Shown here piece after piece: positions 34,001-64,000 of a stretch of 64,000 nt of DNA (positions are counted from its first letter, which is position 1; each line of letters starts with the position of its first letter). The notes below the pieces were generated by a model. It saw only the letters and a list, made by a program, of their open reading frames with translations. It did no database searches and had not been told where the DNA came from. Origin of the DNA: a virus; IMG/VR virus record IMGVR_UViG_3300024272_000034; one strand, written 5' to 3'. Made by a program: the position numbers and the translations under genes.

Positions 34001-34238
34001 TGATATTGCTATTGGTTCTTCCAATAGTTTTTCTAATTTAAGTTTAGAAAAAACTCAAGGTGGAGTACCAATTATAAGTAGTAACTATGGTAATGATAAA
34101 GATATTTGTAATATTTATTTTTATACTAAAAATTATAAAGATAATAGCATTATTAATGGTATTCTTATTGGTGAATTTTTTGATGATAAAAATTTAAGTA
34201 GTAATTATAATATTACTGTTCATTATATTGATTCGTGA
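28086..34238 (+). CDS. giant (2050 aa) host-recognition/tail protein with C-terminal BspA-type leucine-rich repeats
   Basis: RBS AAAGGAGAAA upstream. Ten track ORF fragments are in one frame joined only by TAG, ending at TGA 34236-34238. The C-terminal region (IPKSIQTIATKAFGF...INKAAFGYSNLEYFEF...IGEQAFRGCNL...LKQIGQHAF) matches the BspA-like LRR pattern. Confidence 0.65.
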
Positions 34239-38689: not shown

Positions 38690-38719
38690 TTGAAATGAGA
38701 TAAAGGAGAAAATATTTTA

Positions 38720-42036: not shown

Positions 42037-42061
42037 TATTAATAATTTAAATATTTCTAAA

Positions 42062-44501: not shown

Positions 44502-44626
44502 GGATGAAAAATCAGACAAAAAATGTGTGAGTGTTTCTTGTTTAAAAATCTGAAACAATTTTTATATAGTAATGGAAGGGTAAGAGAAAAATAAAAAAAA
44601 TGAATAAATACCTTGGAGGTGAATAT

Positions 44627-45103
44627 ATGAATTATCAATATAATCAGTAGCAGGTGAGTCCACCGCAGAATTAGACGACTCAGCAGTATTCTTACCAACG
44701 ACAAGTTCCTTATACTTCTGGAACTTGGAATGCGAGAGTCAGACCGGTTTCTTCAATTGAAGAAGTAAGAGCATCTTCAATTGATTTTGATGGCTCAATT
44801 TTTTATTTCCCAGATGTTGCTAATAAAAAAATCTATACTAAATTTATTAATTTAGATGGCTCTGTGGCAATTAATGTATATGAGTTAAAAGAAATGCCAA
44901 CAGGTTAGGCAGCAGATTCATCTTACATTACAAGAGAAGAATTTGAAAACGTAATTATGTAGTTAAAAATGATGTATAATAATTCTTCTGCGCCTTCTAC
45001 TCCAATAGAAGAATAGCAATAGGTATAGTAGTAGATGAATAGTAATTAGTTTGCGGCACCACCCGCACAATAGCAACATAATGTTTCGCCATTACAATTT
45101 TAA
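44627..45103 (+). CDS. hypothetical protein (158 aa) with Gln-rich C-terminus encoded by mixed CAA and TAG codons
   Basis: RBS GGAGGTGAA upstream. The C-terminus reads TAG CAA TAG GTA TAG TAG TAG ATG ... GCA CAA TAG CAA, which is QQQVQQQ...AQQQ if TAG=Gln. Ends at TAA 45101-45103. Confidence 0.55.
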
Positions 45104-47561: not shown

Positions 47562-47630
47562 GAAATTATTCATATGGCAAATCTTCTCTTTAAGAGGTTA
47601 AAAGATGAAAGAGAAGAAGAAAGAAAAAAT

Positions 47631-47668
47631 GGGAGTATCTAATAATTTAGATACTCCCATTTTTTTTG
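47631..47668. terminator. bidirectional rho-independent terminator between the convergent modules
   Basis: GGGAGTATCT-AATAATTT-AGATACTCCC hairpin with an A run upstream and a T run downstream. Confidence 0.7.
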
Positions 47669-48106
47669 TTATATATTACAATCTCGTACTTCTAACTTCA
47701 TCGCACTTTCATAATAATTTTTAGCTTGACCATTGCCGCCCAAAGAAGTATATAATTTATAAAATTCAGTTAATTGGTCATACTAGTCGGGAGTCATAAA
47801 TCCTTGTCTAATAAATCCTTTGCATAATTGAACTAAACGGAAACGATAAGAAGAAATAATTAAATTCATGTGATTCTTTTCTACTTGACCCACATTATAG
47901 ATATAAGACCTTAATTCTTCAAGCTCCTATTGAATTGGTTCAATTTTACTGTCAATTGTTTCATTCAATTTGTCAGTCTCTTGGTCTGCTAAAAGCTTTT
48001 TATAATTTTTCATTTGACTATGCATATATTTACAAAAAGCTAAAGCACCAGCAGAAATTAAACCAAAAATAATTTCAATGAAATGTTCAGTTAAAAAAGC
48101 TAACAT
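47669..48106 (-). CDS. membrane protein with N-terminal TM helix (145 aa, 2 in-frame TAG)
   Basis: The reverse-strand frame is open through two TAG codons. N-terminal hydrophobic FIEIIFGLISAGALAF. It was missing from the ORF track because TAG splits it. Confidence 0.45.
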
Positions 48107-48172
48107 TATAACAAATCCCCTTTCTTAAAATTTTTTCTCACACTATATCAATTTTAAGTAAGGGGATTTTAT

Positions 48173-48664
48173 TTATTCAGACCAATCAAATGATTTTGCC
48201 TAAGAGTTTAGATACCAGTGACCAATACATATTGCGTCACTTTCATCTTCTGTAGCTTGTTTATTATAAAGCGTTTTTATTAATAACTAAGCTTCTTTTT
48301 TCTACTCTGGACGAGTTCTACTTTTTATACCGATTTTACTTTTCCATACTGTAGCTAATACAGCTTCAACTGGTATATCTAATTCTACAATCAATTCATA
48401 AATAACACCAAATACTTCTGCTAATGTTTTAAAGGTTTGAACATTTCCTGTTACATTAGATTGAAGTTGTATATCTTCCATTATAACTTTATTAATAGAA
48501 TAAGTATCAATTAATTGATGAACATTTTTTCTAATATTAAGCAATCTATCTCCTAAATCGGATTGATTACAAGTAAAATGTCCATAATCAATTAATTGAT
48601 TATCTTCAAATATAGCATATCCAGTTATTTTAGAAGACTAATCTAAAGATAAGATTCTGCTCAT
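48173..48664 (-). CDS. ruvC: RuvC-family Holliday junction resolvase (163 aa, 4 in-frame TAG)
   Basis: N-terminus MSRILSLD(TAG)SSKITGYAIFED matches the RuvC/YqgF catalytic motif. C-terminal DESDAICIGHWY matches the acidic motif. ATGA start/stop overlap with dut. Confidence 0.6.
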
Positions 48665-49356
48665 ACTGATTCAAAAACATCTGCTTTTAATCCAAGAGAA
48701 TTAAAAACATCAAGTAATTTTTCATCAATTTTAATTTCGTTATTTAAATTAATTGATTGTAAAGAAGTAGAACCAAATCCGCCTGTTCGTAAGCCAATAG
48801 CTACATCATCTTCAATGGTATAATAAGGTTTAATAATTCCTTGACCAATAATATCTCCTCGTTTTAATTGAATATCAAATGGAGATAAATTAATTAATTG
48901 AAAGAAAATTTCACCTTCATTATCAGGATTATTATAATAATCAGCGTCAATAATACCAACTCCATTAGCAAGAATAAGCCAATATTTTAAAGGAGTAGAA
49001 GACCGCACGCTTAATTCAAGATAAGTATTTGGAAGTAATTCACATTTCATTCCAGTAGAAACTAAAGAAGGTTTAATTTTTGATGCTTTAGTAACAGCGG
49101 CAACATCTTCAAGAGTATAAGGTTTACTCATCTTTTGCGCAAGCTCATATTCAGCCTTCTTCTTTTCTTCTGAGTCAATTACATTCTAATGTAATTGGAA
49201 TAGTTCATATCTACCAAGCCAATTCAATTCTTCAGAACAAGATGGAATTATAATATCTTCAGCTACAACAAAATCATATCCAGCGCTCTGTTCTGTTTTT
49301 CTAATTGGTAAAGGTAAATCAATATCATTAAATCTACTTACTTTTTCAAATTTCAT
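48661..49356 (-). CDS. dut: dUTPase-family protein (231 aa) with an ~80-aa insert carrying one in-frame TAG
   Basis: Track ORF 48661..49131 carries motifs 2-5 (GIIDADYYNN, RTGGFGST). The same frame continues upstream through one TAG to ATG 49354-49356, adding motif 1 (SAGYDF). Confidence 0.6.
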
Positions 49357-49601
49357 TATTCTACCTCATAATTAATATTAACAAAACTTATCGGGTCTTT
49401 TTCATCATTGAAATGTTTGTTTAAAGTAACTTTATACCAACTATCAATAACTGCACCTTTAGATTTTCTTTCTTTAAATTCACTAGAATATTTTGCTAAT
49501 GAAAATTCAGTAGCATTCTTAGCTTCATCAATAATTTCTTTTACTTCATTTTCATTATCTACTCTATATACTTCAATTGTACTTACAAGATATTTTGACA
49601 T
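49356..49601 (-). CDS. hypothetical protein (81 aa)
   Basis: RBS GAGGT upstream. TAATG overlap with dut. Confidence 0.4.
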   Translation of the reverse strand: MSKYLVSTIEVYRVDNENEVKEIIDEAKNATEFSLAKYSSEFKERKSKGAVIDSWYKVTLNKHFNDEKDPISFVNINYEVE

Positions 49602-49602
49602 T

Positions 49603-49863
49603 TTAATTTACCTCAATATTAATTTTTTTAGTATTATAATTTTTTACATTATACATTTGAATATCTTCAATAAAACCTTCAAGATATCCTTCATTACCAT
49701 ATAGGTGAATATTGTATATATCATATGTATAACAACTACTAACAATTACTTCTGCTAAATTATCAATAGTTGTTGAAGCTATTTCTCGCTTACCATTATC
49801 ATCATAAATAAATATATACTAATCAGTATTAAATAAATTAACTGAACTAACAATATAACTCAT
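49603..49863 (-). CDS. hypothetical protein (86 aa, 1 in-frame TAG)
   Basis: Reverse frame is open from ATG 49861-49863 through one TAG to TAA. Confidence 0.35.
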
Positions 49864-49864
49864 T

Positions 49865-50215
49865 TTATCCTCCATATGAAACCATTAAACCTTCACAATC
49901 AAATAAGCACATACATAAATTTTCATCTTCATTTGTCCGCACCCAAATTTCAATTGTATCAGAAGCTTCCATATAATCAACAGTAATAATCTTACCAATA
50001 TCTAAAGCGCAAGTAAGAACTGCTTTTCCTTTATTTTCAAAATCCGATTCGTTTGCTTTTGGATAGAAAATAGTATAATAAGAAATTTCTTTACATAAAA
50101 GCATTAAATTTGAATAATTTTTCATTTTATCATTAATTAATTCAATATAAGGGTCTATATTATCTGCTATTGGAAGCTATGAAACAATAGATTTATTTAA
50201 ATCATATAGATTCAT
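49865..50215 (-). CDS. hypothetical protein (~116 aa with upstream extension through one TAG; start uncertain, alternative start at 50125)
   Basis: Track ORF 49865..50125. The frame stays open upstream through a TAG to ATG 50213-50215. Confidence 0.35.
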
Positions 50216-50299
50216 AGAAATATTTCCATAATCTTTAGATTCTTTTTTTAAATTACACTTCATTATTTATCTCCTTTTTTATTTTATATAATAATTATA

Positions 50300-50782
50300 T
50301 CATATTTTTTTATTTTTGTCAAGATAAATAATACGTTGATTGCGGCTTCCTCTCATAGGAAGTGTAATGTCTCTTTCAGCTTCAATATAAGGTCCATCAA
50401 TTAAACAAGTAATTAATTCTAAAATTTCTTTTATATTTGGATTATGAGGTAAATCATCGTAAGTATACCCTGTCCATAAATAAATTTCTGTATCTGGTAA
50501 TTTTTCTTTAACAGTTTTTATTACCAATAAAGTCAAAAAAGTATTTTCAGGACATAAAGGTTCTCCACCCAAAATACTTAAAGAACGCTTAATACCATTA
50601 GCTTGAAGAGCTTCAATTATTTCATTAATTACATCAGTAGTAAATTCTAGTCCTCCGTCATAATCCCAAGTTTCGGGATTATGACAGCCAAGACAATGAT
50701 GCGGACATCCTTGAGTATAGAAAGAAACTGATACACCAGTTGCCGCAGAAAAATCATTTTTAATTAAACCTGCATATCGCAT
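50300..50782 (-). CDS. nrdG: anaerobic ribonucleotide reductase activating protein (160 aa)
   Basis: GCPHHCLGCHNPETW (CxxxCxxC radical-SAM cluster) after the GVSVSFYTQ motif. Adjacent to nrdD. No TAG. Confidence 0.75.
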   Translation of the reverse strand: MRYAGLIKNDFSAATGVSVSFYTQGCPHHCLGCHNPETWDYDGGLEFTTDVINEIIEALQANGIKRSLSILGGEPLCPENTFLTLLVIKTVKEKLPDTEIYLWTGYTYDDLPHNPNIKEILELITCLIDGPYIEAERDITLPMRGSRNQRIIYLDKNKKI

Positions 50783-51411
50783 TATTCTTCCTCCTCTAAG
50801 TCTAAATCATGAACATCATCTGGATTAGCTACTTCGTAATAAAATATACATCTACAACTGGGATGATATGGTGGGAGATTAACATCTTCATCTGGCGGAT
50901 ATTCTCCGCCTTCACACATATCACATCCACTTTCAATTACTAATAAAGTAGCATTAATAGGTCTTTTATTTTTCTTTACTGCATTTTCTACATTTTTAGT
51001 TTCTGTATTTAAAATTCTTTCAAATTTATAAACTAAATTATCTCTTATTTCTTTATAAGTTTTTTCTTTTAAAATATCTTGTCTTGTCTCTTCCCAAATT
51101 AAAGACAATCTATCTTGAATTGTTTTTCCATCTTCTTTATAAGTTAAATCAAAGATATTTTTGATATTAAATTCTTCTACTTCTTCATATAATTTTTCTA
51201 TATATTTACTTGTAATAAGATATGTTTCAGTTAATGATTCATAAAATAAATCTTCAATTTTTTTATATGCTTTATCCCAAAGTTTAATATTAAAATTATT
51301 TGAATATTCTCTGACAGCTTTTAAAGATTTATTTATAATTTTTTCAAAATATTTATCTTTAGATTCGTCAATTAAATCTTCTAATTTAAGTATTTCTTTT
51401 CTGATACTCAT
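50782..51411 (-). CDS. hypothetical protein with C-terminal zinc-ribbon-like Cys motif (209 aa)
   Basis: Clean ORF between nrdD and nrdG. The C-terminus has CDMCEGG...HPSCRC. Confidence 0.45.
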   Translation of the reverse strand: MSIRKEILKLEDLIDESKDKYFEKIINKSLKAVREYSNNFNIKLWDKAYKKIEDLFYESLTETYLITSKYIEKLYEEVEEFNIKNIFDLTYKEDGKTIQDRLSLIWEETRQDILKEKTYKEIRDNLVYKFERILNTETKNVENAVKKNKRPINATLLVIESGCDMCEGGEYPPDEDVNLPPYHPSCRCIFYYEVANPDDVHDLDLEEEE

Positions 51412-51416
51412 AACAA

Positions 51417-53708
51417 TTATCCATGTTTAACCCTTCGCTCTACCTCATCTTGTTTACCAAGGTTAAAAGCAGTTTTATAATTACCAGTTAAATAACCAGT
51501 AACTCTACGCAATTGTTGAATTTCTTTACTTCCGCATTCTGGACATTCATCATTAAATTCATCAGTATATCCGCATTTAAGACAAGTATCATTTGGAACA
51601 TTTACTGCGAAATAAGGAATATCTTTATCCATAGCATAATTTACTAAAATTTCTAATGCCTCAAGATTATTTTTAATTCCACTATCCAATTCAACATAAG
51701 TAATACATCCAGCAGAAGAATAACAGGTTAATTGAGATTCAATATCAATTTTTTCAAATGGAGACATCTCTATCCACACAGGTACATGCATAGAATTAGT
51801 AAAGAATTCTTTATCGGAAACATTCTCAATTACACCATATTTATCTTTAAATTTCTTTAAAGCAGTATGACATAGGTTTTCCGCAGGTGAATAATAAACA
51901 CCAAAATTTAATTTATATTCATTTTTAAATTGAGCACAACGAGTTTTAAACAATTCTTCAATTCGTTTTGCTAATTCCATTCCTTCTGGAGTAGTATGAT
52001 TTTTTCCAATAAGAATTTGAAGCGTTTCAGCAAGACCTAATTGTCCAAGAGCAAGGGTACCATGCTTAAGAGCGGAACGTATTCCTTCTTCTGGAATATA
52101 TCCTGCCATAAGTCCATTTTCATACATAAACTTAGCAGAATCAGGAGATTGACTACAAATCCATTCAAATCTTTCAATAAGCATATCTTTAGCATCATAT
52201 ATTGCTTTATCAAGAATTTCCATAAAAATATCTACAAGTTCAGTAGTATATTTATATTTATCTGTAAATTGATTTTCCCACTCTTCTTTTGCTTCCATGG
52301 CTAATGTAGGAAGAATAATTGTTACAGGACAAATATTACCTCTACCATCTTTGAGTTGACCAAAACCATTAATATCCCAACCATTTGCTGTGCGGCATCC
52401 CATCGTTGAGAAATAAGTTCTTGGGTCATTAATATCATATCCAGCATTACCAGACCAATCAACATTTGCGTAATTGGGATATAGTCTTTGAGCGGTTGAT
52501 TTTAAAGCCAATTGGAATAAATCATAATTGGGGTCTCCAGGTTTACGATTTACACCTTTCATACATTGAAAGATTCCACAAGGGAAAATAGATGTTTTAT
52601 GTAAAGCTCCAATACCTTCAATGGATACTTCAAGCAAAGCTTTAGTCACCATTCTACCTTCTGGTAAAGTACAAGTACCATAATTAATAGAAGTAAATGG
52701 CAACTGATTGCCTGAACGAGATTGAAGTGTATTAAGATTATGATACATTCCTTCTACGGCTTGATGTGTTTCTTTTTTTGTTTCAAATAGAGCTGCTTGA
52801 CTTAAATATTTATCAAGATTAACAATATTACTAAAAGTGAAATCTTCATATTTAAGATTAAATTCTTTTAAATATTTTTCTTTATGATTTTCAACCCAAT
52901 TATCTAATTCTTCATTTGGCATATCCAAAAGAGACAGAGCTAAAAATTCGTCAGTATGTTTTACATATTCTAATACATAATGTTTAAAAAATGATTTGCG
53001 TATATAAGGCACCATGGTCCAGTCAATATGTGTCGCAGAAACACCACCAAATTGTTGTAAACTTTGTAATTGGAAAATAACCGCTACAAGCTGAAATGCT
53101 GTATTTACAGAACCTGCGGGACGCACATCTGTTTGTCTGGTATTAAATCCTTTAGCAAGCAAATCATCAAAAGGAATAGATAAGCAATTATGTGAACCAA
53201 CATAATAACTATTTAAGTCATGAATATAAATACGATTATTTAAATGATTTTCTCTTGCTTTTGGTGATACAATAAAATCTAATGCTAATTGTTTCGTGAC
53301 CACATCTCCAGCTTCACCTGTGCGGCCTCCAAAAGATGCTTCATCTACATTAGCATTTTGGTTTTGGATATTTGTAGCATTTAATTTTTCTTTAACTGCG
53401 TCAATAAAATCATTTTCATAATGTCTAGCAACTTCTTTTTTATATCTATAACGAATATATTCTCTTGCTACATCACTGCGTTCAGAACGCATTAAATATT
53501 CTTCAACTTTATCTTGAACTTTTTCAACAGTAAATGGTTTATCTGAATTATGTACAGCATCTTTATAAATAGCTTCCGCTATATCAGCAGCTGTATCTGT
53601 TTCATAAAGTTTTCCATCAACTTCAAGAAAAGCTTTATTTATTGCGGTAATAATTTTACCTTTATTAAAAGGAACAAGTGTTCCATCTCTTTTATAAATT
53701 TGTACCAT
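51417..53708 (-). CDS. nrdD: anaerobic ribonucleoside-triphosphate reductase (763 aa)
   Basis: ATP-cone-like N-terminus. C-terminal zinc ribbon CLKCGYTDEFNDECPECGS. Glycyl-radical motif RRVTGYL. No TAG. Confidence 0.85.
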   Translation of the reverse strand: MVQIYKRDGTLVPFNKGKIITAINKAFLEVDGKLYETDTAADIAEAIYKDAVHNSDKPFTVEKVQDKVEEYLMRSERSDVAREYIRYRYKKEVARHYENDFIDAVKEKLNATNIQNQNANVDEASFGGRTGEAGDVVTKQLALDFIVSPKARENHLNNRIYIHDLNSYYVGSHNCLSIPFDDLLAKGFNTRQTDVRPAGSVNTAFQLVAVIFQLQSLQQFGGVSATHIDWTMVPYIRKSFFKHYVLEYVKHTDEFLALSLLDMPNEELDNWVENHKEKYLKEFNLKYEDFTFSNIVNLDKYLSQAALFETKKETHQAVEGMYHNLNTLQSRSGNQLPFTSINYGTCTLPEGRMVTKALLEVSIEGIGALHKTSIFPCGIFQCMKGVNRKPGDPNYDLFQLALKSTAQRLYPNYANVDWSGNAGYDINDPRTYFSTMGCRTANGWDINGFGQLKDGRGNICPVTIILPTLAMEAKEEWENQFTDKYKYTTELVDIFMEILDKAIYDAKDMLIERFEWICSQSPDSAKFMYENGLMAGYIPEEGIRSALKHGTLALGQLGLAETLQILIGKNHTTPEGMELAKRIEELFKTRCAQFKNEYKLNFGVYYSPAENLCHTALKKFKDKYGVIENVSDKEFFTNSMHVPVWIEMSPFEKIDIESQLTCYSSAGCITYVELDSGIKNNLEALEILVNYAMDKDIPYFAVNVPNDTCLKCGYTDEFNDECPECGSKEIQQLRRVTGYLTGNYKTAFNLGKQDEVERRVKHG

Positions 53709-53778
53709 TAATAAATCCTCCGAAAATATTAATTTGGGGCGACCCTATTATATTTAATAGTTGTTTTTTTATGGTTAA

Positions 53779-54333
53779 TTACTTCTGCCCAATGATGCTT
53801 AAAATTGTCTTTACGTTCTTCATTAAGTCTAATGTATTATCATTTTGTAATTCAATATATTCAAAAGGTAAATCTGAAAAATCTTTTTTATCAGTTCCAT
53901 AACGTCTAACAATTTCATCAACATTTGGTTCATCTTCTCTATTTAATTGTCTTAAAAGTCTTTGTTTATCAGAAGCTTTTATATAAAAAATAGTTACATC
54001 AATTTGAGGGTCTGATAGTAAAAATTCAACACGAGATGGGTCAAATACTCCTATATTTATAACATCTGAACGTAAACATTCATAATCAGTTCCATAAAAC
54101 CAATCATTAAAAGTTGCCATTTCTACTAATTCATTATTAATAGCTTTTTGCGCAAATTGCTCTGGTGTTATAAAATAGTAATTAATACCTTCAATTTCAT
54201 TATCTCTACGAGGACGTGTAGTATAACTAATAATAGAATGAACATCATTAGTATTTTCTAAAATCATTCTTAATAATGTATCTTTACCAGAACCAGATTG
54301 CCCAATTAAAGCAATTATTTTATACTTCTTCAT
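53779..54333 (-). CDS. gmk: guanylate kinase-like nucleoside monophosphate kinase (184 aa)
   Basis: P-loop GQSGSGKDTL and YTTRPRRDNEIEGINYYF (TTRxPRxGExxGxDYxF pattern). Confidence 0.6.
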   Translation of the reverse strand: MKKYKIIALIGQSGSGKDTLLRMILENTNDVHSIISYTTRPRRDNEIEGINYYFITPEQFAQKAINNELVEMATFNDWFYGTDYECLRSDVINIGVFDPSRVEFLLSDPQIDVTIFYIKASDKQRLLRQLNREDEPNVDEIVRRYGTDKKDFSDLPFEYIELQNDNTLDLMKNVKTILSIIGQK

Positions 54334-54559
54334 TTATGTCAATAGCCTCATCTTCATATTCATATTTTAATTGATTAGGTAATTCATTACGATAAAAAGT
54401 ATATTTCCTTTTACAGGTAGGACAAAAATAAACATACTGTTCAGGATAAGTACATAAAACTTTACCAGTACTTTTTATTTCTTCATTACAATCTTCACAA
54501 TAAAAGCTATCTATATAGATAGCTTTTACATATCGTCTTTTAATTTTCATCTTCTTCAA
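54320..54559 (-). CDS. small zinc-ribbon protein (79 aa)
   Basis: CEDCNEE...CPTCKRKY. Overlaps its neighbours. Confidence 0.4.
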   Translation of the reverse strand: MKKMKIKRRYVKAIYIDSFYCEDCNEEIKSTGKVLCTYPEQYVYFCPTCKRKYTFYRNELPNQLKYEYEDEAIDINEEV

Positions 54560-57047
54560 TTCCTCCTTGATAACGTTCCGAAGTTAATTTTAAATCAGTT
54601 TTATTTACAATTTCTTCAATTTTATACAACTGATGACCTGGCGTACTATTGTATTTTTTAACAATAAAATTATCTCCAGAACGAATACCCATAACCGCAA
54701 TCATATTACCACGATTAAACCAAGATTTTTCTACAATCTTTTTAGTTCCATCAGGATTTTTGATAGAAATTTGTTTATCAAATAAAGAAAAATATTCTTT
54801 TCTAAATTTAACTTCTACAACTCCATGAGTTGTTAATAACGTTACTGTGCTTTTAACCTTATTTTTTGCTATACAGGTTCCGCAAATTTTATGAAGTTTA
54901 AACATATGAATTTCTTTTCCTCCACGAGCAAACACTTGGTCTACTATTGGTTCTTCTGGCAAAGCAAAGAAATCAACAAATCCATATTTATTATGATTTA
55001 CATCAATTAATTCATGTTCGTGATAATAAAAACATAAAACTTCCATCTCCCAAGCAGAAATTGTACCTGAAGCATATTTCTCCCAATCTTCAAGAAAAAC
55101 AGCATCATTTATTTTTACTAAGATTTCATCTTTATTTTCATTAATCCATGTTCTAAAAATATCCATCCAATTTTGATAAATTTTTTCCCATTGCTTAATA
55201 TTCATAAAGAAAATTGTATCTTTTGTTATAATCAAATTATCACAATGTACTTCAATAAGAAAATTAATAGCTCTTTCATCTAATTTATATAATTCATTAT
55301 TAAATTTACAAATTGCTTTTAAATAACGATTAAATTCATATACTCTTCTTGCTAAAATTTGTTCTTCAGTTTCAGATGGAAGTAGATTATATTTAATTAA
55401 TCCACCCATATTTTGTAGAGTAATTCTTTTTTTTCTATCGCAAGTTTCCCAAATATACCAAGCCATACAAGTTTTACGTTCCATCATATCATCAAAAGCT
55501 CCACCCTTAATCAATGAAATCATAGCTTGCTTGCCTGGATTTACTTTATTCAAAAAATCTCGCGGAGATACATAAGGTCTATGTTCAATGATAGATGCTA
55601 CGACATCATCACCAACATTTAATAATCCTTTTAAACCAAAAAGAATTCTATTGTTCTCAGCATCTGGCGCAAAGCCATATTTAGATTTATTAATATTTGC
55701 TAAACTAACTTTAATACCAGCAGCTTGAATATCACCAATAGCTTTCGCAATTTTACCATAATCAGTACTTGCGCCAGCTTCTTCATCAGTTGCGCCACTA
55801 TTAACAATTAAACAAGCTGTATTCCAATAGATAGGATTAAATTTAGTTGCCAATAAAATTGTTTGAATACCAACAAATGAATAAGGTAATGAATGATTTA
55901 AACTAAAAGCATATCCAAGTTGTGGAGCGACCGCAACTTCCCAGACATAATCTGCTATATTAGAATTTCCAATTTTTTCATACACTTGCGCTTTTAATTC
56001 CGGAATTTTTGACATCTGTTTTTTTGCTACTATTTTACGAGCAGCGTTTGCTTCACCTAAAGTAAAATTAGCAACCTCCATCAAAATTTCCATCATTTGC
56101 TCTTGGATAGGACAGCAACCATAATATTTATCACAATGTTTATGCATTAACTCAATCATTTTTTCAGGCAAATGATTAAATTTCATTTCTTTATCAAAAA
56201 TATTAATTCCTGATTTTTGAATGCGAGCATATCTATCTTGCTGACTTTCTTTACCTTTTTCAGACATAAGTCTCATCATAGCATTTGCGGCAGTCATCTC
56301 TAAAGGATTTTGTGGTTTAAGTTTTTTCGCAATTGCTAATCCAACACCACCACTAAACTGAAATACATCCAATATATCACCTGCGGCTAAATGATTCCAA
56401 ATATAATTTTCAGATGTGTCAATTATTTCTGGATGAATATATTTATTATAAGTTTCTCTTAAACCAATATTTTCAATTAAATTATCCTCATGTAACATTT
56501 CAAAACATTTAATAATTTTATCAGAAACTTCAGTTACAAGAAAATCATATTTAGTATCACCTGCTGCTTCCGCCGCATGTAAGTCAAAACAAGTAATTAA
56601 ATCTCCATTTGGTGCTCTCATAAAAGATGCTGTATCAAATGGATTTTTATCATAAAGAATTACACCAGAAGCATGAATGCCACGTTTATTTACTAATCCC
56701 TCTATTGAAATGATAATATCAACCAATCCAGGATATTGATTAACTTCTTTTATAAAAGTTGTAACTGGTTTTCTATCTTTTTCTTCATCACCATATAATA
56801 CTTCTGAAATAGACCATAAAAATCCACGTTCTTGAGGAATTAATGATGACATATATTGCGCTACATCTACATCTATTCCTTCTGGATATTCTTCACTTCT
56901 ATAACCACGACAAGCTGTAAGAACAGCTGATTTAGTTCCTTCAGTTCCAAAAGTTGCTACCTGAACCAAACCAAATTCTCCACGTTCTTTACGAATTGCT
57001 TCAAAAATCGCTGGTCTTTTACTTGGAGCCAGGTCTATATCAATATC
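54540..57047 (-). CDS. dnaE: DNA polymerase III alpha subunit, exon 2 (836 codons), begins DIDIDLAPSKRPAIFEAIRKERG
   Basis: The track ORF from 56969 extends in frame to 57047 with no stops. The conserved PDIDIDF / GEFGLVQVATFGT motifs are reconstituted across the splice. Confidence 0.8.
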   Translation of the reverse strand, partial: DIDIDLAPSKRPAIFEAIRKERGEFGLVQVATFGTEGTKSAVLTACRGYRSEEYPEGIDVDVAQYMSSLIPQERGFLWSISEVLYGDEEKDRKPVTTFIKEVNQYPGLVDIIISIEGLVNKRGIHASGVILYDKNPFDTASFMRAPNGDLITCFDLHAAEAAGDTKYDFLVTEVSDKIIKCFEMLHEDNLIENIGLRETYNKYIHPEIIDTSENYIWNHLAAGDILDVFQFSGGVGLAIAKKLKPQNPLEMTAANAMMRLMSEKGKESQQDRYARIQKSGINIFDKEMKFNHLPEKMIELMHKHCDKYYGCCPIQEQMMEILMEVANFTLGEANAARKIVAKKQMSKIPELKAQVYEKIGNSNIADYVWEVAVAPQLGYAFSLNHSLPYSFVGIQTILLATKFNPIYWNTACLIVNSGATDEEAGASTDYGKIAKAIGDIQAAGIKVSLANINKSKYGFAPDAENNRILFGLKGLLNVGDDVVASIIEHRPYVSPRDFLNKVNPGKQAMISLIKGGAFDDMMERKTCMAWYIWETCDRKKRITLQNMGGLIKYNLLPSETEEQILARRVYEFNRYLKAICKFNNELYKLDERAINFLIEVHCDNLIITKDTIFFMNIKQWEKIYQNWMDIFRTWINENKDEILVKINDAVFLEDWEKYASGTISAWEMEVLCFYYHEHELIDVNHNKYGFVDFFALPEEPIVDQVFARGGKEIHMFKLHKICGTCIAKNKVKSTVTLLTTHGVVEVKFRKEYFSLFDKQISIKNPDGTKKIVEKSWFNRGNMIAVMGIRSGDNFIVKKYNSTPGHQLYKIEEIVNKTDLKLTSERYQGGIEEDEN

Positions 57048-58229
57048 CGTTTATTGGACTATATTTTTCATAATGACTTACTAAGAGCATTTTACTTCAG
57101 TCATTACTAGAACATCTTTCAGACGGTGCTTATCTCCGCCTTACATAAATAGTCTCTACACATTTAATCTTATTTTTCTATTTGTTTCCAATAATAGCCT
57201 TTATATAAAGTTCCATTTTTAATCGCTTTATCTAATTGAGTGTGTCCTTTCATTCCTAAGAATTGTAAGACTGCGGTTTTAGCATTAAATATTTGAATTA
57301 AATTGTAATTTTCATCATACATTTCAATTCGTTTTCCATTTAATGCTTGATTACCACTTTTACCATACATACCATTTTTTTCGCCAGCGGTTTTACCTTT
57401 ACTATTTACAGACATTTTCTACTTAGACTCTTCTGTATGTTTTTTACCATACATTCCATTATTAGAACCTTTTGTTTTTTCACTCATTTTTTGTTTAAAC
57501 TCTTCAGTTCTATAAGGAGAGTTGTCTCTTTCAAATTCTGCCCAATAAGATAAAAATGCTTTAGTTTTTTCACTATGGTATTTTCCATACATTCCATTAT
57601 TCTTACCACGATTTACTTCACTTAATTTTCGGCACAAAACTTCTTTTTCTTCTGGTGTATATCCTGCGGTAGTGTTTCCTCCACAACCGCCCTCATGAAT
57701 ATTATAAAACAATGGATTTGATGTGGCATTATATAAGGCAATAAATTGTTTTTCTTTTTCACTATTTTCTAAATCATTTTTAGAAACAAATAAAATGGAC
57801 TTTGTAAAACAGTCTTTTCCATATTTGGCAATTTCTTTTTTCAATTCTTTTCCGCTGCCTAAATATGAATCATCTAATTCTCCATAATGTTTTCCGATAT
57901 ATTTCATACCATTTATATTATTAGTAGTTAAATAAATATAATGTTGTTTCATTTAAACAACCCCCTTTCATATATATTTAACTTTTAGAATTAGACAATG
58001 ACCTGACTTTGTCCAAGATTTTTAGCACGGTATTCCCAATCTAACCTTTTTTAGGTCATAGGGTCTCTTAGTCAGTTGATTCGCATTTATATAACATAAA
58101 TCTTATTTCGCTGATACCGTTAGCCTGCGGTTACTCGTCTCGCCGGTCGGATGACCGGGCCGCCGCAGACACCCATTAAGCAATGGTTAATGTTCTTTTT
58201 TTACAACTGCCCAATATCAATATTAGACT
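57048..58229 (-). mobile_element. group I intron in dnaE carrying a GIY-YIG homing endonuclease gene
   Basis: Exon 1 ends ...NKERAELP at 58230 and exon 2 starts at 57047. Joining them restores the conserved DnaE motif. The intron follows a U and ends in G. Its 5' part (58090-58170) is GC-rich and structured. The read-through tail after exon 1 (SLILILGSCKKRTLTIA) is unconserved. Confidence 0.7.
57170..57952 (-). CDS. GIY-YIG homing endonuclease with four NUMOD3 (NGMYGK) repeats (260 aa) containing one in-frame TAG
   Basis: The N-terminus YIYLTTNNINGMKYIGKH is the GIY-YIG motif. Track ORFs 57419..57952 and 57170..57415 are in one frame separated only by a TAG (TEESK-TAG-KMSVNSKGK). The C-terminus has an HTH-like IKNGTLYKGYYW. 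RBS GGGGG upstream. Confidence 0.7.
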
Positions 58230-59600
58230 AGGCAGTTCGGCTCTCTCTTTATTTAAAAATCTCCAATAAGGGAGACCCCAACGAATTGGGTCAAGTTGAG
58301 TAATACCAAGCAAATAATTTGAAAGAAAACCGGTCGCAGAACCTCGTCCAGGTCCAACAATTGAACCGCATTCCCAAAACAAATCAATATAATGTTTAAA
58401 AGTATTGAAATAAGCGAAAAGACAATCATCAAGTTTTTCTCCAATAAACTTAATTACATCTGCCTCAATTTCAATACGATTAATATATTCTTCATTAAAT
58501 AAATTTTTATTTATTAATTCTTGTAGACATTCATTAATCCAATATCTTTCTTGAGATTCATCAGATATTAAAAGTGATTTAATAATCGGCCAATTAGTAT
58601 CTAATTCATCTTTTAATGAATTATTAATACCAAAATAAGATAAAGTTTTAGGATAATCTTTTACTTTTACTTTTGGAATAATTTGTTTTCTTTCAATTGA
58701 ATAAAATTCAATTTTATTTTTTATTTCATTTGTATTATTTAAAATCCATTCTGAAATATCATCATCTTGATAAGCATATGTTAATAATTCTTTAGCTTCA
58801 TTATAATCCATTAAACGAGCAAATTCATAAAATGAATCAACTTCTCGTTCTCCACCTTTAGAATTTAAATAAGCTTTATGAACCCATCTATCTTGACTTG
58901 TATAATAATGAGCATCAGTTCCTGCGACTAATTTAATTCCAAAAGATTGAGAAATAGAGTATAATTTTTTATTAACCAATACTTGGTCTTTTGTAGTTGC
59001 TGGGGCGCATTCTAAATAGAAATCATCACCAAATAATTCAAGACAATAATTAATAAAATCAATTATTTTTGAATAATATACTTTCATTGTTTCCATGTCT
59101 TGAACTTCTTCAGCTAAACAAAATTGTAATAAATTTGATGATAATTCTCCACCAAGACAAGCTGTTGTAGCTATTAAATGTCCTTTATATTTATTAACAA
59201 TAGTTGATAATTCTTTTTTTAAAACTGGAACTCTTTCCATTTTTCTATCAACATATAAATTATACCAAGCTATTGAACTTAATTCTTTTAATGCCATATA
59301 ACCAATTTTATCTTTGGCAATTAAAATAAAGTGATAATATTTTTGACCACTACTTCTATCATCTGTTAAATAAATTTCATTACCAAGTGCAATTGTAAAA
59401 TCTGGATTTGTCTCTCTCAATTTCTTAGCATATTGATTTACTTCCATGTGCGCAGATAAACATTCATGGTCTGTAATTGCTATACCGTTTAAACCCAATT
59501 CAATTGCTTTATCAATTAAATCTTTAGGTCTATTTATACAATCAAGTAAGCGAATATTTGAATACATTGTATGATTATGACAATTAAAATAACTGTTCAT
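58230..59600 (-). CDS. dnaE: DNA polymerase III alpha subunit, exon 1 (PHP domain, 457 codons)
   Basis: N-terminal PHP motifs CHNHTMYS, AITDHEC. Ends ...RFLNKERAELP before the intron. Confidence 0.8.
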
Positions 59601-59662
59601 ATATATTCACTCTCCATTTTTATTTTTTCATATAAATATTATACCATATTTTATATGAAAAA

Positions 59663-59857
59663 TCAAGTTGTATATTCTTGAAGTACAGAAGCTAATGTAC
59701 GCCTAAAATCTTCATTTCTTTGAACTCGTAATTTTAAATCATCCATTTCAGCTTTTTCTTTATCTAATTGTTTTGCCATAGCTAATAATGAATGAGCGGC
59801 TGCTTCTAAATCGCGAGCAGCTTGTGTTAAGTTTTTTGAAGTTTCGTTTTCATCCAT
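59663..59857 (-). CDS. small hypothetical coiled-coil protein (64 aa)
   Basis: Clean ORF. Confidence 0.35.
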   Translation of the reverse strand: MDENETSKNLTQAARDLEAAAHSLLAMAKQLDKEKAEMDDLKLRVQRNEDFRRTLASVLQEYTT

Positions 59858-59860
59858 AGA

Positions 59861-61051
59861 TTAACTACTCCTTATTAATACTAATTTATCTTTAGCTCTT
59901 GTGATTGCTGTATATAACCATTTTTGATGTTCTTCTTTATTGAATGGAAATCTTTCTTCAAATACTAAAACTTTATTCCATTCACTACCTTGTGCTTTAT
60001 GACAGGTAATAGCATAAGCATATGCAAAATCATATGGTGGCTCTAAATCACAATTTTTATTTTTTTTCATTTTATATATTTCAATTGGAGTTAATGTTGA
60101 AGTATTATTAACTAAATAATTATAATCAATTGGAATATTCATAAAAGTATCATCTTCAAAATCCATATGAGTCATCATATATTCAATTGGTGCCGTTCTA
60201 ATATATCTAAATGTATATTTATTTTGTTTAAAAAAAGAATCTATTGTTCCAATAGAGCCATTTGTGAGTGGCCAATTTCCATTAGCAGAATAGAATTCCC
60301 AATGATTAGATAGACTGATAATCTTATCTCCGACACATGGCTCTGGGCCATATCCCTTTTTTTCTCTAATAAAATTATTTATGTAATTTCTTGTATCATT
60401 AGTGGCGCAAAGAATTTGGTCTGCCCAATCATACATTCCAGTACAAATTTCGTTTTTAGAAAATAATTTTACTTGTTCTCCTAATGCTTGAAAGCTACTT
60501 AAAGGCTTACCCTCTCTTACATGCATTGATAGTCTAATAATTTCACTATCTTGCGCTTGCCGCATAATTTCATCAAGAAAAATATGCGGATTATCTAATA
60601 CATGATTATTGTCTTCTGGATTTACAGGTGGTAACTGGCCGGGGTCGCCGCAAGCTAATACATATATTTTATGACTTAATAACAAATCCCACATAGGCTT
60701 AGGTAACATAGATACTTCATCAACAACAATTACTTTATAAGCATCTTCTAAGTTTTTCCGTGGTTCATGAATAAACTTTCCACTTGGTAATTGTTTAGAA
60801 TAATAAAGTAATTTATGCGCAGTAGTAGCATTATAGCATCCTTTTTGTTTAAGAACAGTAGCTGCTTTACCAGTAAAAGCTATATAACAAACTTCAGTTA
60901 CTGGGTCTACTGGTAAAGCTGAAATAATATATTTAATTAAAGTACTTTTACCACTACCAGCATATCCTGAAATTATAGTATATGGTTCTTTATCAAAATA
61001 TCTTTTAATAGAAATAGTTAAACCTTCTGTTTGTTTATTTGTTAATATCAT
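59861..61051 (-). CDS. SF1 DNA helicase, RecD/Dda-like (396 aa)
   Basis: Walker A GYAGSGKST. Walker B VIVVDEVSML. ACGDPGQLPPV. ITCHKAQGSEW. YTAITRAKDKLVLI. Confidence 0.75.
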   Translation of the reverse strand: MILTNKQTEGLTISIKRYFDKEPYTIISGYAGSGKSTLIKYIISALPVDPVTEVCYIAFTGKAATVLKQKGCYNATTAHKLLYYSKQLPSGKFIHEPRKNLEDAYKVIVVDEVSMLPKPMWDLLLSHKIYVLACGDPGQLPPVNPEDNNHVLDNPHIFLDEIMRQAQDSEIIRLSMHVREGKPLSSFQALGEQVKLFSKNEICTGMYDWADQILCATNDTRNYINNFIREKKGYGPEPCVGDKIISLSNHWEFYSANGNWPLTNGSIGTIDSFFKQNKYTFRYIRTAPIEYMMTHMDFEDDTFMNIPIDYNYLVNNTSTLTPIEIYKMKKNKNCDLEPPYDFAYAYAITCHKAQGSEWNKVLVFEERFPFNKEEHQKWLYTAITRAKDKLVLIRSS

Positions 61052-61053
61052 TT

Positions 61054-61287
61054 TTAATCCTCTTTATTATTTACATGAGCATGTACTAATTGTTCTAAAC
61101 AATTATAAAAGTGCATTTTTTGAGTTTCTGCTTGATTATGTTCTTGTTCATAATCATGACTACGCTCTGCTTTTAATCTAGCAACTTCGTCACAGAGAAT
61201 AGCATATCTAAAATAAATGCTATCAAAACCAAAATCTAATCTATCTTTATATAAATTTTCTAATGCTTTTTCCTCTATTGTAATCAT
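61054..61287 (-). CDS. small hypothetical protein (77 aa)
   Basis: Clean ORF with a 4-nt overlap to its neighbour. Confidence 0.35.
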   Translation of the reverse strand: MITIEEKALENLYKDRLDFGFDSIYFRYAILCDEVARLKAERSHDYEQEHNQAETQKMHFYNCLEQLVHAHVNNKED

Positions 61288-61643
61288 AAGTTAAACTCCT
61301 TTATAAAATTTTCGTACCATTTATCAATTTGCTCAAAAATTTCTAAATCACTTTTTTCTTTTGGTTTCTCGGTCTCAGCTTCCAACACCGGCCGGAGCAA
61401 TTTTTCCTCCATTAAATAGACAGTATTCATTATATGGTCATATGTAAGCAATTTATTTTCAGTATCATTAATCCTAGCATCTAAATTTCTCACCTAATCT
61501 TCTATTGTGTCTATACGACCGTAACGACCAAGTGCTTTAACTATATCTGTAACTTCATATAATGAAATTCTATATTTATCTTCAAATTGATTTTCAAACC
61601 ATGTGAAATTATCTTCACCAAGCTTTATTTGAGTTTGTATCAT
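61284..61643 (-). CDS. hypothetical protein (119 aa with N-terminal extension through one TAG)
   Basis: Track ORF 61284..61493 starts at a GTG. The frame continues upstream through a TAG to ATG 61641-61643 (MIQTQIKLGEDNF...). Confidence 0.4.
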
Positions 61644-61723
61644 AAATATATTTACCCCTCACTTATTATTATTTCTATATATATTATATCATATTTTTTT
61701 ATAAAAATCAAAAAGGGAAGATT

Positions 61724-62554
61724 TTATTCTTCCCTTACAAAATATTCATATGCTTTTAAAGCATTTGTTTTTCTTACAGAATAATAAGCAGAATTGCAAC
61801 GTTCATAACTTTTAGCAAAAGCTAGTGCTACTTCTTGAGCATCTTGTAATGCTAAAAACTTTTCATATGAAAAATCTTTTTGATAAGCGCGCCCAAAAGT
61901 ATTAATTTCATATTCAATAGTATCTCTTAAAAAATCACATTGCTCTTGTAAACTTCCACCCACAATAGAACTATAATATGTGGTATTCCATTGGCACATT
62001 CCATAATGAACTTTGCCACCATATAGCCAATATTGAATATCTAAAGTATTACCTCCAACTTCAGCCATTATATTTCCTAAAATACCAGCAATTACATAAT
62101 TATTATATCCTAAATTTTTTAAATATAACCAAATTTCTGTTGCTACTGGATAATCTGTTTTTCTTTCTAACCAGAAATTATAATCATTTGTATATTTAGT
62201 ATATAATTCATGTGCTTCTTCCCATTCTCTTTTGGCTAATTGAATAATTAAATGATTATCTTCATATCTAAGAGCCCGAGCCATTTCTGCCATTTGATGA
62301 GCAATTTCTTTTTTATCCTGATAGTAAGAAATTTTTGTTGTTAAAATTTCTAAATCATCGGTTTCAATATATTCATGTGGAATAGTTTTTTCTGTTGAAT
62401 ATACTGGTTCACATTCTTCAGCCGGTACATCAGCTACACAAGTTGAAACTGGTGATAATATAATTGGTTCATCAGCTTTAATTAAAGTAGTATTTGGATT
62501 TATGTGAAAGAAAATAGATAAAGTTAAAGTGAATACAATAATATATTTTTTCAT
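61724..62554 (-). CDS. secreted protein with signal peptide and putative lysozyme-like/cell-wall hydrolase domain (276 aa)
   Basis: RBS AGGAGAAAAATT precedes ATG 62552-62554. Signal peptide MKKYIIVFTLTLSIFFHINP. The motif AGILGNIMAEVGG...YGMCQW is recalled as tail-lysozyme-like; this is weak. Confidence 0.45.
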   Translation of the reverse strand: MKKYIIVFTLTLSIFFHINPNTTLIKADEPIILSPVSTCVADVPAEECEPVYSTEKTIPHEYIETDDLEILTTKISYYQDKKEIAHQMAEMARALRYEDNHLIIQLAKREWEEAHELYTKYTNDYNFWLERKTDYPVATEIWLYLKNLGYNNYVIAGILGNIMAEVGGNTLDIQYWLYGGKVHYGMCQWNTTYYSSIVGGSLQEQCDFLRDTIEYEINTFGRAYQKDFSYEKFLALQDAQEVALAFAKSYERCNSAYYSVRKTNALKAYEYFVREE

Positions 62555-62592
62555 AATTTTTCTCCTAATATTTCTATTAGGTCTATCGTGTT

Positions 62593-64000
62593 TTAAAAAT
62601 AGTATGTTTGTTTTCCTGTAATTTCGTAATCTTCTATAATAATTTGCGGACTTACAATACCATTCCAAATATTTCGCTCGCATTTGCCAACGATATTAAT
62701 TGTTACACAACCTAAATTAGAATATAAAGATTCATATTCTTCTTTAGACGACCTGAATTTAATTAAACTCATCCCATTTGGAAGTGTAATCTTTAGAGTA
62801 GGATTTTTATCTTCAGACATTAACTTTAAATTTTCATTATTAATTTTAATATTTTCAATCGCAATTAATGGTTCTTCTACTCCTTGACCCCAAATTGTTT
62901 TTAAGTTGGCTAATTCTAAAACATCATTAACATTCATGTCATTATGATTAAAAATATAATCAACTTTATAACTAGGGATAAACTCAAAATCCTTTAAATT
63001 ATCATTAGCATATTCAATAAACTTATCAATTCTATCATTTGTAAAAGCGCATCCAAAGGCTTGAGCATGACCTTCCGCAAATTCGTCAAGATGGCTTGAT
63101 ATAATAAATTCTCTAAAATTATCAAATTTAGAATTACTTAAACCTCTACCAGAACCTTCCCAAGAATTATCATCTTGTTCATTTAAAAGTAATACTGGCT
63201 TTTGATATTTAGACATTAATTGATTTGCGATTAAGCCTGTTAAATTCTTATCAATAGAATATTTTTTTGGTAATTGAATTACTAAAATTTTATTTTTTAA
63301 AAGATTTTGTTCTTGAATGAGATTTTCAATTATTTCCAAGCTCGTGTCTCTTGCTTTAGTTTGTCTATTTTTAATATTAGAGCAATTACGACAAGCTTGT
63401 TCTACCCTTGTCTCTGTTTGACCTTGACATCCACGCTTAGTTGAAGAAATCATTTTATAACCTAAATGGTCTAACATAGATTCAAATAGAATTAGCTTTT
63501 CATTTTGCGTGCCAACCCGAATGGTTGCGTTGACATAAGGAGCAATATAAAAAGCTATACCGAATGGTGTTAACTCACCTTTTAATGAAAAGGCTTGTTT
63601 ATCTACCATTCCTTTAAAAAATGGATTACGAACTTGTTTAATACCACATCTAATTAAATGTGTAGTTTCAAAATCTCGTAAATCCATCATATCTGCTACC
63701 ATACCAAGAGCAACTAAATCAAGAAATTGATTAGCATAATCTACATCTAAAAGTTCATCAATATATGAACAAAATTTATAAACCATACCAACACCAGACA
63801 GTGATTTTGTAGGATAATCACATAGTTGATTATTAATTACGCAGGCATCTTCACATTCATATTCAGCTTCATGATGGTCAATAACTAATACATCTATATT
63901 TTTAGATTTTAATTCTTTACATTCATCATAGCTATTGGAACTAGAATCTGGAGCAATAACTAATTTAATGTTATTAGTAATAGTTTCTGGAATTATACCA
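62593..64000 (-). CDS. RecJ-like DHH-family single-strand exonuclease, 5' end beyond window
   Basis: The frame is open from the window edge. DHH motif VLVIDHHEAE lies upstream of the track ORF. DHHA1-like GHAQAFG lies within it. Confidence 0.65.
   Translation of the reverse strand, partial: GIIPETITNNIKLVIAPDSSSNSYDECKELKSKNIDVLVIDHHEAEYECEDACVINNQLCDYPTKSLSGVGMVYKFCSYIDELLDVDYANQFLDLVALGMVADMMDLRDFETTHLIRCGIKQVRNPFFKGMVDKQAFSLKGELTPFGIAFYIAPYVNATIRVGTQNEKLILFESMLDHLGYKMISSTKRGCQGQTETRVEQACRNCSNIKNRQTKARDTSLEIIENLIQEQNLLKNKILVIQLPKKYSIDKNLTGLIANQLMSKYQKPVLLLNEQDDNSWEGSGRGLSNSKFDNFREFIISSHLDEFAEGHAQAFGCAFTNDRIDKFIEYANDNLKDFEFIPSYKVDYIFNHNDMNVNDVLELANLKTIWGQGVEEPLIAIENIKINNENLKLMSEDKNPTLKITLPNGMSLIKFRSSKEEYESLYSNLGCVTINIVGKCERNIWNGIVSPQIIIEDYEITGKQTYYF

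Follow-up and report, generated by a model that had tools for sequence, protein, structure and literature searches.

Why should a phage fill some of its genes with a reassigned stop codon and keep others entirely free of it? This question is raised by a 64,000-nucleotide (nt) stretch of viral DNA, IMG/VR record IMGVR_UViG_3300024272_000034 (the window), in which the amber codon TAG appears to be read as glutamine (Gln). The window belongs to a tailed phage of ~186 kb that infects Bacillota-type bacteria of the gut or rumen and is distantly related to the recoded phage phAss-1, to the Enterococcus phages EF1 and VRE9 and to SPbeta. A preliminary description of its right-hand, minus-strand genes had proposed that TAG is dense in late genes and absent from core replication genes, and that the recoding machinery lies elsewhere in the genome. 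The analysis that followed favours, with moderate confidence, a model in which TAG would act as a translational gate on late and lysis proteins, backing transcriptional timing.

TAG as glutamine and its uneven use

The window has a GC content of 28%, and long open reading frames (ORFs) cover 42% of it under the standard code, rising to 95% once TAG is treated as sense. Reading TGA as sense brings no improvement, and reading TAA as sense swells coverage only non-specifically, so that neither was retained as a recoded codon. The assignment of TAG to Gln is solid, resting on homolog alignments, an internal repeat and poly-Q runs. Specifically, Gln is the most frequent residue opposite TAG in homologs. 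In MT836163, the closest relative, it stands at 17 of the 44 ungapped sites, which equals its rate at CAA/CAG sites (30 of 75); it further occupies 8 of 14 sites in standard-code relatives and 17 of 71 sites in phAss-1. The TAG of a homing endonuclease sits where the neighbouring NUMOD3 repeat has a CAA/CAG-encoded Gln (FKQKMS versus SK-TAG-KMS), and the eleven TAG of the ORF at 44600-45103 are clustered in the runs QqQ, EEqQqVqqq and AQqQ (q, TAG).

Plus-strand genes occupy positions 1-47.6 kb and minus-strand genes 47.7-64 kb. In the late arm at 1-43553, TAG occurs at ~15 per 1000 codons and is present in 84% of genes. Its share of Gln codons, TAG/(TAG+CAA+CAG), is 0.375 in the plus arm versus 0.075 in the minus arm (Fisher P=1.4e-26), and within the minus arm ten core replication and nucleotide genes hold 0 TAG among 153 Gln codons, against 24 TAG and 142 CAA+CAG in the remaining genes (P=7e-8). 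Base composition does not account for the contrast between the arms, because out-of-frame TAG is equally common in both (15.6/kb in the plus arm, 13.7/kb in the minus arm).

The per-gene counts first put forward were reproduced: nrdD, nrdG, gmk, both dnaE exons and the superfamily 1 (SF1) helicase lack TAG, while ruvC carries four, a transmembrane protein two, and dut, three small genes and the homing endonuclease one each. The statement that recJ is free of TAG holds for the part inside the window (62593-64000) and fails for the full ORF (62593-64338, from an identical contig), which has two TAG in its conserved N-terminus beyond the window edge. Three of the four TAG in ruvC fall within its full-length Pfam match. 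The TAG in dut precedes the Pfam dUTPase match (residues 94-181) and has on its other side an AGYDF stretch, which we take to be dUTPase motif 1. The TAGs of the small genes are truly internal, since their starts are set by strong ribosome-binding sites and promoters, and correction of gene starts does not even out the TAG distribution.

The same count was run over a reconstruction of 143,045 bp (window coordinates -28,828 to +114,216), built from 100%-identical public contigs, and gave the same pattern throughout (Table 1). Proteins from both of its ends co-occur on one 186,545-bp contig, so that the genome is put at ~186 kb, of which the reconstruction covers 77% and leaves ~43 kb outside. 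Its late arm holds 282 TAG, and Pfam or PHROG matches extend across TAG sites in RuvC, portal, TerL and RecJ. In the minus arm, the primase-like protein, DnaB, LigA, GyrA, GyrB, RNase H and the NAD-salvage genes are TAG-free; of the 37 TAG between 64.3 and 111.5 kb, 13 belong to a holin-like/endolysin pair and 6 to one GIY-YIG nuclease. The TAGs of the early-left region lie upstream of called starts or act as a stop. Overall, the TAG share of Gln codons is graded, from 0 in the core replisome over 0.08-0.36 in recombination and nuclease genes to ~0.4 in virion genes. The proposed split between late and replication genes stands for virion and lysis genes versus the core replisome and nucleotide-metabolism genes, and is too simple for RecJ, the AAA_24 ATPase and PhoH, which carry TAG.

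The same genes are filled or spared in phAss-1. Compared over 30 pairs of orthologs, the TAG densities of the two phages are correlated (Spearman 0.61, P=4e-4). DnaE, NrdD, the primase-like protein, the SF1 helicase, GyrA, GyrB, the major tail protein and the 272-amino-acid (aa) and 195-aa head proteins are TAG-free in both; the tape measure, RecJ and 313-aa, 241-aa and 942-aa proteins bear TAG in both; and the putative major capsid protein (MCP) has 2 TAG here and 0 in phAss-1. Only 2 of 74 aligned TAG sites are common to both phages, which suggests independent or fast-turnover recoding. In MT836163, the nearest relative (55-59% amino-acid identity, GC 0.29), no aligned ortholog has an in-frame TAG.

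A proposed translational gate and its alternatives

The genes that can be translated under the standard code include the immediate-early genes, DnaE, DnaB, the primase-like protein, the SF1 helicase, ligase, gyrase and RNase H, as well as those of nucleotide and NAD metabolism. Read-through of TAG is needed for terminase, portal, tape measure, baseplate and fibre proteins, a sigma factor and the lysis pair. The gate model would work as follows. Early in infection, release factor 1 (RF1) would stop at TAG and late products would remain unmade, even from mRNAs of host-type sigma-A promoters. Subsequently, a TAG-decoding activity, normally a phage tRNA-Gln(CUA), would accumulate and permit translation of late and lysis proteins, and the gate would thereby guard against premature lysis. 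In a second layer, genes that need maximal or very reliable translation would shun TAG whatever their timing, leaving putative capsid and tail-tube genes TAG-free.

The lysis pair lies directly downstream of PhoH, flanked by TAG-free genes on the PhoH side and by GyrB/RNase H on the other. Between PhoH and the endolysin, neither a sigma-A-type promoter nor a terminator was detected. Standard-code gene calls split the endolysin into pieces of 37-109 aa. A TAG-dense lysis pair inside a TAG-poor arm indicates that TAG density tracks function rather than strand or position. A membrane-anchored protein with a Phage_lysozyme2 domain (61724-62683), among the replication genes, constitutes a second muralytic enzyme, for which early synthesis is possible, unlike for the TAG-laden endolysin.

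The early and late control regions give further detail. The early-left region contains an array of eight promoters, spaced 120-450 nt apart with one small ORF each, that looks like a classic immediate-early, host-takeover array. One of its ORFs encodes a 105-aa protein and ends at TAG. Public code-15 calls stretch this protein to 121, 128 or 155 aa, the extended tails differ in length and run into the next promoter, and their …VWYNIYRER… is translated TGTGGTATAATATATACAGAGAG; TAG therefore probably still serves as a true stop in early genes. On the late side, the arm begins with the sigma factor gene, which has 4 TAG; TerL and portal come after it with 9 TAG each. If this sigma factor drives late transcription, TAG suppression would lie upstream of the transcriptional switch. 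In the replication arm, the promoter at 50294-50322, the only 12/12 consensus match of the region, stands between the TAG-free nrdG and the distal unit with the 132-aa ORF, Dut and RuvC.

Several observations weigh against the gate. Sigma-A-type promoters head TAG-free and TAG-rich units alike, the plus arm included, and TAG-bearing and TAG-free genes occupy common apparent operons; a distinct late-promoter motif was looked for and not found. Promoter type is thus no usable proxy for timing, and any gating would have to be translational, gene by gene. TAG is found in RecJ (2), a Sak4-like AAA_24 ATPase, PhoH and Dut (1 each), while the virion proteins that are probably most abundant are encoded with 0-2 TAG, a preference for CAG and a GC content of ~0.40; both fit tolerance as well as they fit a gate. 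Finally, ARAGORN, run throughout, detects not a single tRNA in the 143 kb reconstructed out of ~186.5 kb. The early-versus-late label of the preliminary description fits the virion and lysis bias but is too simple, given the TAG in RecJ, the ATPase, PhoH and two GIY-YIG nucleases (6 and 1).

The strongest competitor, which we consider possible though clearly less probable than the gate, is tolerance rather than regulation. Given some suppressor activity, C-to-T drift in this AT-rich genome would turn CAG into TAG, which would stay where slow or leaky decoding causes little damage and be purged from the genes most strongly selected for efficient and accurate translation, with the early/late contrast as a by-product. 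The graded use of TAG, the shared operons and the TAG-free or nearly TAG-free putative capsid, head and tail proteins are all in line with this account; in phAss-1, the orthologs of the 272-aa, 195-aa and tail proteins and of the MCP are TAG-free. It sits less well with an endolysin that has 11 TAG in 543 codons within an otherwise TAG-poor arm, a lysis bias likewise seen by Borges et al., or with a sigma factor carrying 4 TAG at the head of the late arm. The tolerance and gate models are not mutually exclusive.

A historical rather than selective origin of the pattern is improbable. In such a scenario, the TAG-free genes would be recent arrivals from standard-code phages or hosts, as might be suggested by nrdD, which has 76% nucleotide identity to Thomasclavelia phages while the rest of the 16-kb region is unmatched, by NrdD relatives at 60-80% amino-acid identity over many large contigs, and by some TAG-free genes that are GC-richer and CAG-preferring (head and tail genes, Band_7, NAPRTase, MVP_shoulder). 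However, DnaE, DnaB, the primase-like protein, helicase, ligase and gyrase are at the genome's GC (0.25-0.30), prefer CAA and yet lack TAG, and their phAss-1 orthologs, although no more than 23-41% identical in amino acids, lack it too, which points to long-term constraint. Recoding is patchy and fast-evolving, yet it falls on the same genes, a pattern that favours selection over recent transfer as the general explanation of TAG-free genes.

The GC-richer genes form a second codon-usage class of their own (GC ~0.36-0.43), with CAG over CAA (for example 26 CAG : 0 CAA) and TAG almost unused. Its members include the putative MCP, the major tail protein, Band_7/flotillin proteins, NAPRTase and an MVP_shoulder protein, and its cause could be high expression or foreign origin.

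That the pattern is an artefact of wrong starts or fused ORFs, or that the host itself reads TAG as Gln so that no switch exists, is very hard to credit: most early-left TAGs do disappear after start correction, one is apparently a true stop, and some TAGs fall a few codons before a TAA or TGA stop (for example RuvC codon 154 of 163), but the TAGs of the late arm lie in long conserved genes with domain matches spanning them and the small-gene starts are fixed, and a TAG-decoding host is unlikely because it would make the TAG avoidance of early and replication genes and the apparent TAG stop needless, and because the closest relative has the same GC and the standard code.

Search for a suppressor tRNA

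The view that the recoding machinery is not in the window is borne out by the absence of any tRNA there by ARAGORN or Rfam, and each intergenic gap of the minus arm, read directly, is free of tRNA-like sequence, as had been noted. As a positive control, ARAGORN recovered all 36 phAss-1 tRNAs, three of them with a CUA anticodon; the Rfam tRNA scans covered the window and loci L001, L003, L004, L008-L012, L022, L027, L032 and L034. The whole 64-kb replication arm (47.7-111.7 kb), NAD-salvage block included, has no tRNA, nor does the 70-nt gap between nrdD and gmk. Rfam, run with permissive settings, returned nothing for the dnaE gap or for the left end, which is GC-rich and poor in ORFs.

In phAss-1, nrdD is immediately preceded by two of the three Sup-CUA tRNAs, and the third belongs to an array of 32 tRNAs further up the same arm, beside the NAD-salvage genes; none of these has a counterpart in the arm described here. 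A suppressor tRNA beside nrdD was likewise sought in 60 NrdD-bearing relatives, and none was found within 3 kb on either side; tRNAs occur near nrdD in 4 of the 60, and these are only tRNA-Tyr, Thr or Ala. In extending the genome, scans of metagenomes and of genome contigs came back empty, and a last homology search yielded only non-identical representatives, which sit in tail-fibre modules from other phages with no tRNA nearby. Pfam scans of minus-arm genes and precomputed Pfam annotations of the loci showed no domain of a release factor or of an aminoacyl-tRNA synthetase, several large plus-arm proteins lying outside these scans.

It is thus conceivable, at somewhat below even chances, that the phage encodes no suppressor tRNA at all. 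This estimate is rough and combines a prior of ~75% for a suppressor tRNA with 77% of the genome being without one, including the arm that carries the tRNAs in the relative. True absence is possible because Babkin et al. report recoded relatives of the phAss-1 group that lack suppressor tRNAs (PMC10607447). If there were none, TAG could be read via a host or co-resident suppressor, through RF1 inactivation or by near-cognate read-through with tRNA-Gln.

Relatives, genome context and significance

Among complete genomes, phAss-1 (OQ749652.1) is closest by portal (40%), followed by Enterococcus EF1/VRE9 (29%). Likeness to phAss-1 extends to TerL (41% amino-acid identity), the putative MCP (49%) and DnaE (38-41%), to a layout in which virion genes on one strand are followed by a long opposite-strand arm with DnaE, helicase, RecJ, NrdDG, gyrase, PhoH and NAD salvage, and to the reassignment of TAG to Gln, with the same orthologs TAG-free or rich in TAG. 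In contrast, there is no nucleotide-level similarity, proteins are 23-53% identical, and phAss-1 has 136 kb at GC 0.40-0.50 versus about 186 kb at GC 0.28 here. Babkin et al. (2023) described phAss-1, the proposed Phassvirus group and a 'Caudoviricetes code 15 clade' (PMC10607447). Members of the Phassvirus genus share 80-86% nucleotide identity, whereas a 16-kb megablast from this phage returned only nrdD; the synteny and signature proteins of the wider group (portal, TerL, putative MCP, tail, DnaE, RecJ, NrdDG, gyrase, PhoH) have homologs here, and a tRNA-Sup-CTA beside nrdD and a large tRNA array do not. Judged by these comparisons, the phage falls outside the Phassvirus genus but within the wider group. 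With EF1/VRE9 and SPbeta-like phages it shares the head-to-tail gene order and PHROG families 2739, 35301, 4088, 30998, 3853, 31155 and 30570, with a giant tape measure coming next; these phages differ by their standard code and a portal identity of only 24-29%. A crAss-like or Lak-like identity was ruled out by the YorL-like DnaE and by portal and TerL, which point to phAss-1/EF1-like phages.

The correspondence with other recoded phages that had been proposed is in agreement with both Babkin et al. and Borges et al. The latter found structural and lysis genes recoded and replication machinery in standard code, with lysis genes preferentially recoded and the same bias in independent lineages, an early gene whose intron carries a recoded homing endonuclease, standard-code phages among the close relatives and low GC as a precursor of recoding (bioRxiv 10.1101/2021.08.26.457843). 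Code-15 recoding has been validated by proteomics in crAss-like phages (PMC9523058). The present phage resembles these gut phages in its low GC, its late and lysis bias, a recoded homing endonuclease in an early gene, standard-code close relatives and TAG unseen as a stop outside the early region. It differs in being a ~186-kb Bacillota-type siphophage with an SPbeta-like DnaE that belongs, as far as testable, to none of the named clades; in having revealed, over 143 kb, neither a suppressor tRNA nor a release factor nor an aminoacyl-tRNA synthetase; in having 0-2 TAG in its probable most abundant virion proteins; and in a lysis cassette placed within a sigma-A-promoter unit of the replication arm.

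The gene annotations of the minus arm were checked against Pfam and confirmed (Table 1). DnaE has 39% identity to SPbeta YorL, and its gene is interrupted by an insertion that divides the catalytic PDIDID motif (...RFLNKERAELP / DIDIDLAPSKR...). Rfam finds no group I or other intron family in the insertion (57039-58232), even at E<=1; it may be an unmodelled intron class, or its large ORF may defeat the Rfam model. The 5' 280 nt of the insertion are GC-rich (0.39).

Within the late arm, the radical-SAM genes at 37520-43138 form what has the appearance of a ribosomally synthesized and post-translationally modified peptide (RiPP)-like maturation cassette. Equipped with a separate sigma-A-type promoter at ~37135, it comprises a 389-aa low-complexity protein rich in Cys, Ser, Thr and Asn (8 TAG) along with two radical-SAM proteins, a 199-aa ORF and an aldo/keto-reductase that carries a 2x[4Fe-4S] fusion. 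A divergent, minus-strand response-regulator-receiver-like gene (43739-44314), likewise with its own promoter, comes next.

The upstream half of the minus arm (~85-111 kb; L022/L027/L032) encodes NAPRTase, NAD synthase, an NMNAT-like protein, isochorismatase/nicotinamidase, NADAR and Macro, along with a T7 Gp5.9-like protein, a pair of Band_7/flotillin proteins and possible tRNA/RNA-repair enzymes (Thg1-like, a KTI12/AAA_33 kinase, two Metallophos and RNase T); the neighbourhood of this NAD-salvage and putative RNA-repair set is free of tRNA genes. Past the divergent start of this arm, a second structural block on the plus strand (~111.7-114.2 kb; L032 1-2578) contains proteins with Mtd_N domains, the fold of the major tropism determinant of diversity-generating retroelement systems. 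A 458-aa protein of this block recurs at 85-98% identity in many other 150-290-kb phages, which gives it the look of a mobile tail-fibre module.

Close NrdD homologs are found on contigs of 120-180 kb binned as Bacilli, Mollicutes, Clostridia, Bacteroidales, Treponema and Methanobrevibacter, which are probably mis-binned phage genomes of the same family; several of their nrdD copies have ~0.8-1 kb insertions (intron or intein). With the best hits spread over such unrelated taxa, NrdD is uninformative as a pointer to the host.

Table 1. Features of the window and of the reconstructed genome, in window coordinates unless a locus is given
Feature	Position	Strand	TAG	Remarks
Late (virion) arm, part in window	1-43553	+
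Putative major tail protein, 344 aa	3-773	+	0	Role from gene order
Second codon-usage class, in window	3-773, 779-988	+
Tape measure, 3306 aa	2841-12761	+	78	From gene order and PHROG families
Large tail/baseplate protein	12873-18230	+	28
Large tail/baseplate protein	19362-21608	+	17
Large tail/baseplate protein	21574-24402	+	12
Large tail/baseplate protein	28086-34238	+	25
Radical-SAM cassette	37520-43138	+		Within late arm
167-aa Gln/Asn/Tyr-rich ORF	44600-45103	+	11	Highest TAG density of window; no family match
Bidirectional intrinsic terminator	47622-47667			20-bp stem; meeting point of plus and minus arms
145-aa protein, N-terminal transmembrane helix	47669-48106	-	2	No Pfam match
RuvC-like Holliday junction resolvase	48173-48664	-	4	Full-length Pfam RuvC match
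dut (dUTPase)	48661-49356	-	1
Three small genes (132, 90, 81 aa)	49356-50263	-	1, 1, 0	Head of distal, TAG-bearing transcription unit; TAG-bearing genes at 49603-49875 and 49865-50263
Sigma-A-type promoter, perfect	50294-50322	-		TTGACA-17-TATAAT with TG extension; serves distal unit
Nucleotide-metabolism block	50300-54550	-	0
nrdG	50300-50782	-	0
209-aa ORF	50782-51411	-	0
nrdD, 763 aa	51417-53708	-	0
gmk (guanylate kinase)	53779-54333	-	0
76-aa zinc-ribbon protein	54320-54550	-	0
dnaE exon 2 (PolIII alpha, SPbeta YorL-like)	54540-57038	-	0	Coding start DIDIDLAPSK
dnaE intervening sequence	57039-58232	-		Holds homing endonuclease
GIY-YIG/NUMOD3 homing endonuclease	57170-57952	-	1
dnaE exon 1	58233-59600	-	0	PHP domain and start of NTPase domain
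Extended -10 promoter	59638-59666	-		Ahead of dnaE exon 1
64-aa ORF	within 59663-61643	-		
SF1 (UvrD/RecD-like) helicase	59861-61051	-	0
77-aa ORF	within 59663-61643	-	0
119-aa ORF	61284-61643	-	1
Promoter	61683-61711	-
Terminator	61713-61736	-
Membrane-anchored Phage_lysozyme2-domain protein	61724-62683	-	0
RecJ-like exonuclease, C-terminal 468 aa	62593-64000	-	0 in window
Early-left region, 28 small genes		-	2.4/1000 codons	Near-perfect TTGACA-N17-TGnTATAAT promoters
Promoter array, eight near-identical very strong promoters	-18.6 to -16.0 kb (L009 1-3000)	-		ctaTTGACAAAt-N-tGTGGTATAATATATACAGA
105-aa early protein	about -18118..-17801 (L009 798-1115)	-		ORF ending at TAG
Phage sigma factor (phrog_5767)	-13967..-12909 (L009)	+	4	First late-arm gene; sigma-A-type promoter
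Second codon-usage class, outside window	-6294..-3677
Late arm, reconstruction		+	15.2/1000 codons	TAG in 84% of genes
272-aa phrog_35301 head protein			TAG-free or nearly so	Role from gene order only
371-aa phrog_4088 protein in MCP position			2	Role from gene order only
195-aa head protein			TAG-free or nearly so	Role from gene order only
Distal unit (RuvC, Dut, transmembrane protein)	47.67-50.27 kb	-	10.7/1000 codons
Core replication and nucleotide genes	50.3-64.3 kb	-	0.9/1000 codons
Upstream part of minus arm	64.3-111.5 kb	-	2.5/1000 codons
Holin-like membrane protein and 543-aa amidase-type endolysin	80915-82934 (L012/L022)	-	2 and 11
Second codon-usage class, reconstruction	85157-86620, 91110-92333, 97915-98862, 108632-111094	-

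Taken together, the late and lysis bias of TAG is itself already published, and this phage adds an independent, large Bacillota-phage lineage to the known pattern, as further evidence that amber recoding follows gene function. That two lineages with almost no TAG sites in common fill and spare identical sets of orthologs provides good support for gene-level selection. The 11-TAG endolysin, the 4-TAG sigma factor and the early gene that apparently ends in TAG offer natural test cases for the gate model, and, should the phage truly lack a suppressor tRNA, it would lend itself to studying how recoded phages of this sort decode their late genes, be it independently of a tRNA or with the aid of the host. 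On the practical side, gene callers set to the standard code break up most virion genes of this phage family, and contigs of the family appear to have been mis-binned into bacterial and archaeal metagenome-assembled genomes.

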